Below are positions 17,268 through 17,390 of a stretch of 64,000 nucleotides of DNA, piece by piece. A program made the translations under genes and the position numbers. The stretch is from assembly GCA_951406725.2 (NCBI GenBank), contig OX597820.1, positions 38,564,001 to 38,628,000 of the forward strand. Direction: 5' to 3'. The stretch comes from Octopus vulgaris. Lineage: Eukaryota. Under the pieces are notes generated by a model. That model was not told the DNA's origin. It searched no databases and saw only the letters and a list, made by a program, of their open reading frames with translations. Each line of letters starts with the position of its first letter. The stretch's first letter is position 1.

Positions 17268-17390
17268 CGGAATCTTGGGGTTAGTAACCCGTACTCTTAA
17301 CCACTACGCCTTATGCCCGTGTGTTAACAACAAACAAAATGAGGACAAATATCCGTCGAATGTAAATAATGTAAATAATGTAAATGCGGC
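17268..17390. mobile_element. Truncated copy of the tRNA-HHR element
   Basis: tRNA-like head (-) fused at 17321 to the post-HHR segment GTGTTAACAAC...GAGGACAAATATCCGTC (+). Confidence 0.8.

Follow-up and report, generated by a model that had tools for sequence, protein, structure and literature searches.

A truncated inverted copy of a hammerhead-bearing candidate Penelope-dependent element in Octopus vulgaris breaks beside the predicted ribozyme cut

Insertions of Penelope-like elements are marked by inverted, 5'-truncated arms and by a one-sided tail (PMC8557442), and pairs of their hammerhead ribozymes, 100-700 bases apart on opposite strands, have been reported (PMC4209133). The function of these ribozymes was called unclear by Craig et al. 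(PMC8557442). According to the accessible part of the study of Frangieh et al. on an anole Penelope element, cleavage was unnecessary in vitro, hammerhead mutants inserting normally, and no RNA-seq reads ended at the cut (PMC11167929). It is an unsettled question whether these hammerheads cleave inside cells and whether RNA that has been cut is ever copied again into the genome. A ribozyme situated in the middle of an element belonging to a high-copy family makes this question testable from the genome alone, since every 5' break is then a data point.

Such an arrangement was encountered in a stretch of 64,000 nucleotides from Octopus vulgaris (hereafter the window), where a self-search over the 64 kb uncovered three element arms: A (+, 21794-22135), B (-, 21793-21501) and a separate truncated copy, C (17267-17385). 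Arms A and B form a head-to-head dimer (AB, 21501-22135). Their tRNA-like heads carry A and B boxes, assigned by match to the box consensus and located in both arms at +8 and +53, which is tRNA spacing (Table 1). Neither ARAGORN nor Rfam called a tRNA here, and the fold contained no cloverleaf. The first run of four T occurs at 22119, in the tail, and none lies inside the unit. The body that follows the (TAA)n run has about 155 bases and the whole unit about 340, with no reading frame. Body B was 86% identical to body A over 153 bases; the two heads had drifted more (40/53). A tail was present on arm A only, arms B and C stopping at the first end site. Outward 3' ends, an inverted arm and a one-sided tail give the dimer ends of Penelope type, not a LINE-type tail. 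No target duplication of at least 6 letters was found around it.

Table 1. Coordinates of the elements and motifs discussed in the text (positions are those of the window)
Feature	Positions	Strand	Remarks	Method
Repeat unrelated to the element, upstream of the (TTA)n run	16560..17107	+	second copy at 52057-52420; 80% identity over 322 bases	
(TTA)n run	17108..17265	.	inverted arm of copy C runs into it; no element body beyond	
Copy C, inverted arm	17267..17319	-	5' part of tRNA-like head, 5' end complete	
Copy C, junction	17320..17321	.	TG fits inverted arm (21794-21795) and body (22051-22052)	base-by-base comparison
Copy C, forward arm	17322..17385	+	body from 3' strand of hammerhead helix I to short 9-base tandem end	
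Dimer, arm B	21501..21793	-	full head, (TAA)n and body with hammerhead; ends without tail	
Dimer, arm A head	21794..21870	+	tRNA-like; A box 21802-21812, B box 21847-21855	motif match
Arm A, internal (TAA)n run	21878..21955	+		
Minimal type I hammerhead (arm A)	22012..22055	+	predicted cut 22051/22052	
Arm A, 3' end	22056..22135	+	main end near 22104-22110, then tail of about 25 bases to 22135	
Penelope-like fragment, another family	23199..24765 (right boundary approximate)	+	inverted arm 23199-23314; own hammerhead-like motif	

The combination of head and body was seen at two loci of the window, and family contigs (see below) reach the TAA run at the start of the 21950-22150 stretch, with a few short back-joints in the other family copies over that stretch. 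The self-search revealed neither a partner element with the same 3' end in the window, the neighbouring Penelope fragment having a different hammerhead, nor a head-to-tail tandem with one ribozyme per unit. On sequence grounds, we infer that the parent is non-coding and relies on a Penelope-like enzyme for its movement, and the dimer is a candidate member of a high-copy, SINE-like family dependent on Penelope. The literature searched, outside which lay Repbase, Dfam and most subscription papers, yielded no account of a hammerhead-bearing unit that combines a Pol III head with inverted insertions of Penelope type. Motifs of the element were absent from the supplement files searched of PMC13282606, PMC4209133 and PMC9115989, and collections of metagenomes, viruses and prokaryotes gave 0 matches to a 25-base body motif. 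In the terms searched, the accessible parts of PMC4758252 and PMC13282606 made no mention of ribozymes.

The hammerhead of arm A displayed, in a motif scan, an intact CUGAUGA core, the GAAA and a GUU triplet. One bulged A precedes helix II, which has 5 bp and pairs 5/5 in both arms of the dimer, while helix III is replaced by a palindromic AACGUU without loop (AACGTT is its own reverse complement). Helix I pairs 4/4 in arm A and 3/4 in arm B, where the loss of one pair is accompanied by a mutated core A6. By core and architecture, this is the minimal type I hammerhead form of Penelope-like elements, with cleavage predicted at the position given in Table 1. A hammerhead scan allowing a bulge returned 4 motifs in the window as against 0-1 in five block shuffles. 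Rfam recorded no hammerhead family, either at gathering score or at E up to 10, only hairpin or chance matches. Two further hammerhead-like scan matches (5819-5873, +, with a changed core; 58476-58429, -) were weak and at about shuffle level.

The Penelope-like fragment next to the dimer served as a control. It is 5'-truncated and was inserted into a (TA)n run, with an inverted arm of 116 bases. Its frame (23245-24174) is of GIY-YIG type (0.97 in the features score; PF01541 borne by 13-19% of the members in two hit clusters); a Pfam search of the frame recorded no family and it is unrelated to the frame at 34246. The hammerhead-like motif of this fragment (24569-24609) has one core position changed and a predicted cut at 24606/24607. 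In this one case, the inverted arm breaks at 24618-24621, i.e. 11-14 bases 3' of the fragment's own predicted cut.

The window as a whole is rich in repeats and contains remnants of LINEs and transposases. Several copies of another tRNA-like SINE family, unrelated to the present element, were located at 17601-17900, 17960-18300, 916-1215, 19027-19231, 42561-42845 and 50053-50126. Frames at 11044-12519 (-), 33248-35895 (+), 39837-40832 (+) and 54646-55350 (+) resembled, by eye, LINE reverse transcriptases and mariner/Tc1 transposases. Long near-perfect inverted repeats occurred at 3094-4255 (99%) and 26892-27643 (92%), and a pair of LINE 3' parts lay inverted at 10975-11358 and 13445-13828.

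In copy C, a tRNA-like head in inverted orientation is fused to the ribozyme-bearing element's 3' part. A sequence-only reading of the locus had described it as a forward part, beginning GTGTTAACAAC at 17321 and equal to the predicted 3' cleavage product, fused to an inverted tRNA head. Both observations held, since the forward part matches 22052 onward and the head (17267-17319) matches both heads of the dimer (42/53 identical letters with A, 43/53 with B). The same reading placed the end of the copy at 17390; it lies at about 17385, and the forward arm has no tail extension. Pairwise identities among the three copies were 42/53 (C-A), 43/53 (C-B) and 40/53 (A-B) for the heads, and 54/59, 51/59 and 51/59, in the same order, for the 3' parts. 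The A box of the inverted head shows one change; its B box and 3' half are missing. A gap of 24 bases including the B box is bounded by short direct CYGA repeats and represents a second short-repeat (microhomology) join, distant from any ribozyme site. No hammerhead core is left in the copy, CTGANGA being absent from both strands of 17100-17400. The order of its parts, flank and (TTA)n, inverted 5' part and forward 3' part, is the twin-priming layout known from L1. The (TTA)n run itself may be the (TAA)n of the element or else the target of the insertion. The unrelated repeat upstream of it starts at (TTA)n in both of its places (16560-17107 and 52057-52420), and the former has (TTA)n on both flanks.

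How closely the join of copy C coincides with the predicted cut was determined by comparison with the intact dimer. The exact forward match begins at 17320, corresponding to 22051, the base 5' of the cut, and thus one base earlier than had been proposed when the junction was set at the cut itself. The TG overlap allows three breaks (22050/51, 22051/52 and 22052/53); the predicted cut is the middle one, so that the break lies within one base of it and the cut does fall inside the break interval. The blur of 1-3 nt previously attributed to a CGT/GTG microhomology is real and amounts to three positions, the shared letters being TG and not CGT. CGT was dropped as junction overlap as it would require an additional lost T. 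If breaks were uniform over the body, the chance of one falling there would be 0.023 (3 of 130 body breakpoints). TG is present 8 times in the body, which raises the chance to about 1 in 8 (0.13) if a join needs a TG overlap; neither figure takes account of the freedom to notice coincidences. The same two spacer letters follow the inverted head in copy C and in the dimer, where a palindromic centre with CpG decay explains them equally well.

Other copies of the family were examined in contigs of four public runs from three studies (X1, X2, X5 and X14), aligned to the body of arm A (21950-22150). Three of the runs are genomic (X1, X2 and X5, from two studies) and X1 possibly comes from the same sample as the window; X14, only guessed to be RNA and available as contigs, is silent on expression and on RNA ends and served as an additional sampling of the family. 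The family is large, since 15,456, 17,144, 10,657 and 1,956 contigs of the four runs match the body. In the three genomic runs, 3' loose ends clustered strongly at 22104-22110 and 22134-22135, with 67-338 contigs per site and 247-338 at the 22135 end. The histogram of 5' truncation points that the sequence-only reading had proposed as a check was obtained in part, and displayed no loose ends at the cut (22050-22053) among the 24 of 687 rows listed. Among these same rows, 5' loose ends of the three genomic runs were at 22007 (26-37 contigs) and 22092 (94-121 contigs), both adjoining letters where arm A differs from most copies; those listed for X14 were at 21981, 22067 and 22092. If rows were ranked by count, the rule being unstated, the cut would have at most 37, 31 and 26 contigs as against the 247-338 of the 22135 end. 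Joints within the family are many and scattered, and 0 of the 14 distinct joints listed (9 + 5) had an end at 22050-22053, which is a weak test given the many inner deletions. One joint, from 22030 to 22069, observed in X1 and X2 at one locus, skips 22031-22068 and carries a 4-letter filler equal to the four bases before the cut; this may reflect joining to the 5' cleavage product, or the filler may be due to chance.

Depth about doubled 3' of the cut (ratio 1.9-2.4). The ramp began at 22044 with an even slope and without change at the cut in X1, X5 and X14, and at 22049-22054 in X2 (76% read). The doubling was not accepted as proof of a step at the cut, for scattered truncation fitted equally well and the best single step was at 22026-22046. 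Modelling of the depth was rough and the behaviour of the aligner was guessed. Mismatch alone fitted the profile badly, and by the letter-free model many copies must be 5'-truncated or different upstream. In a first, cruder model, 30% of copies starting at the cut and scattered truncation gave equally good fits. The share of copies assigned to a spike at 22052 was 0-4% in all 30 fits of a letter-free model, and 0-21% in 10 fits of a model with shared-junction words (up to 21% in two of them). Taken together, a dominant class of copies starting at the cut is unlikely and a minor one is possible. The model also preferred an extra step at 22026-22046, at helix II and its loop, which could reflect enzyme stalling on the hairpin or a subfamily whose loop differs, or could be artefactual. 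Three other features of the alignments were set aside. The missing G-to-A change at 22049, considered as ribozyme selection, is probably an alignment artefact, as a 14-letter seed reproduces the pattern. Lower variation in X14 was shared by X5, a genomic run of low depth, and the segment 21950-21998, with its low cover, is one where arm A differs from most copies.

The explanation that we favour, although at slightly less than an even chance, is that copy C is an old and ordinary Penelope-type inverted insertion that stopped near the cut by chance and was joined by microhomology on insertion. A short retroelement without coding capacity, composed of a tRNA-like Pol III head, (TAA)n and an end of Penelope type with a minimal hammerhead, and presumably transcribed by Pol III, would be mobilised by a Penelope-like enzyme, both nicked target strands serving as primers. 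From the first primer, the forward arm would be copied starting at the RNA's 3' end, with an early stop near the base of the hammerhead; the second would anneal to (UAA)n at a genomic (TTA)n site and be extended to the RNA 5' end. The two cDNA ends would then be joined through the shared TG, the stop beside the cut being fortuitous. This is favoured because an inverted arm and a one-sided tail are usual Penelope marks, seen in the dimer and in the neighbouring fragment, because the join has a TG overlap and the body 8 TG sites, and because the same copy has a second short-repeat join far from the ribozyme. Further arguments are that none of the listed joints and no listed loose end fall at the cut, where the letter-free spike is 0-4%, that the neighbouring Penelope arm breaks 11-14 bases from its own cut, and that the anole mutants insert normally with no RNA-seq ends at the cut. 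Against it stand the break interval centred on the cut, with a uniform chance of only 0.023, and the other side of the join, which is the start of the head, a natural RNA end such as two run-off cDNAs would give. The X2 ramp at 22049-22054, the fits of the cruder model and of a 0-21% spike, and the limitation of the loose ends to 24 of 687 rows also count against it, as do the absence of a target duplication at the dimer and of a partner element in the window.

The sequence-only reading had proposed that a self-cleaved RNA end served as template. Run-off copying of the 3' product would then have given the forward arm, and copying of the 5' product, kept in the same particle by helix I, the inverted one, so that cleavage would force a two-primer insertion. 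We consider this unlikely for copy C, though it is the strongest of the rivals. The cut lies in the middle of the three-position interval, and an RNA start two bases ahead of the tRNA-like +1 would make join and cut coincide exactly. The shared spacer letters after the inverted head, the intact core of arm A in a Penelope minimal form and the filler of the 22030/22069 joint (X1, X2; one locus) also point this way, and a precedent exists in R2, whose 5' junctions follow the ribozyme cleavage site (accessible part of PMC3774820). Yet there is a single copy, without a cluster at the cut among the listed rows, and the TG overlap spans both sides of the cut, for which reason a self-cleaved template and a microhomology join are inseparable here; the further claim of genomic evidence of activity in vivo thus went beyond the data. 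Moreover, minimal hammerheads depend on a second copy and show weak cleavage in vitro (PMC4209133, accessible part), the head-to-head dimer gives only one hammerhead per strand, and uncut RNA is the main substrate of the anole element (PMC11167929, accessible part). Alternatively, copy C may have begun as a full AB-like dimer from which DNA was later lost, from the palindrome centre to 22052, via the TG overlap, the B box and left body disappearing in separate events. This is somewhat less probable again. Copy C does equal AB minus 21796-22053 (or 21794-22051) with no extra letters, it bears another short-repeat deletion, and closely spaced inverted repeats form hairpins that promote breaks and deletions (PMC7999016, accessible part); but three separate losses would be needed, of which two-primer insertion explains the missing left body without any, and the centre of AB is intact despite a drift of the arms to 75-86% identity. 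A local template-switch copy of AB pieces, or an assembly error, would be in keeping with the only other copies in the 64 kb lying as near as 4.5 kb, and is very improbable since C is as far from A and B as A is from B, which argues against a recent copy or assembly echo. The weights attached to these four explanations are judgements and were not computed.

A broader proposition, that a tRNA-headed Penelope parasite sometimes cuts its own RNA in the insertion particle and has both halves copied in one event (the 3' product forward, starting precisely at the cut, and the 5' product inverted, starting at the (UAA)n run), is regarded as doubtful, with a weight marginally below that of a self-cleaved template for copy C. 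If true, in vivo cleavage by a minimal Penelope hammerhead would be recorded in the genome by a minor class of copies. Should a few per cent of truncated copies derive from cut RNA, the odds for copy C would be near even; should none do so, they would be zero. The latter is quite possible because minimal hammerheads cut weakly, and as dimers, and because the anole element needs no cleavage. A single copy does not answer the question, and the family data, as far as listed, speak rather against an effect that is dominant. Copy C itself is ordinary; the parent, with its Pol III head and Penelope-type end, is the more interesting element.

Comparison with known systems, as described in the accessible parts of the cited sources, places the parent near endonuclease-positive Penelope-like elements (PMC8557442, PMC11167929). 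It shares with them a 5'-side inverted arm, outward 3' ends, a one-ended tail, two 3' end sites, an AT-rich or microsatellite target, heavy 5' truncation and a hammerhead near the 3' end. It differs by its lack of a reading frame, its size of about 340 bases and its tRNA-like Pol III head with (TAA)n; the tail has about 25 bases instead of 30-40, and no partner was found in the window. The hammerhead agrees with metazoan Penelope minimal hammerheads (PMC4209133) in CUGANGA, an unpaired base before helix II, G10.1-C11.1, a palindromic loopless helix III and a short helix I, and Lottia examples share the C-G-U-U, and mollusc Penelope hammerheads the helix III letters, of arm A (PMC4209133 supplement). 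Differences are its helix II of 5-6 bp and the fact that the present motif is a predicted one without Rfam match.

Among other short elements, the SINE-like SM-alpha and Sj-alpha of schistosomes (PMC6765202, PMC8490949) are likewise non-coding retroelements with a Pol III-type promoter followed by a hammerhead. They form head-to-tail tandems released by cleavage, whereas the copies described here are head-to-head or truncated and carry a Penelope minimal ribozyme. Animal non-LTR retrozymes (PMC7229834; bioRxiv 10.64898/2026.07.22.740005) are also short and non-coding, with a type I hammerhead and a proposed dependence on Penelope; yet their defining trait is a tandem array in which each unit bears a ribozyme, an arrangement absent from the window, and no tRNA head is described for them in the accessible parts of these sources. 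Helenus and Ajax (PMC10886601), being LTR-type elements, were set aside. R2 elements with an HDV-like ribozyme (PMC3774820) resemble the situation considered for copy C in that their 5' junctions record the self-cut of the RNA, blurred by chance microhomology. In R2, however, the cut makes the normal 5' end of a whole element, while in the present unit the promoter and the greater part of the sequence would be lost by it, leaving a dead copy.
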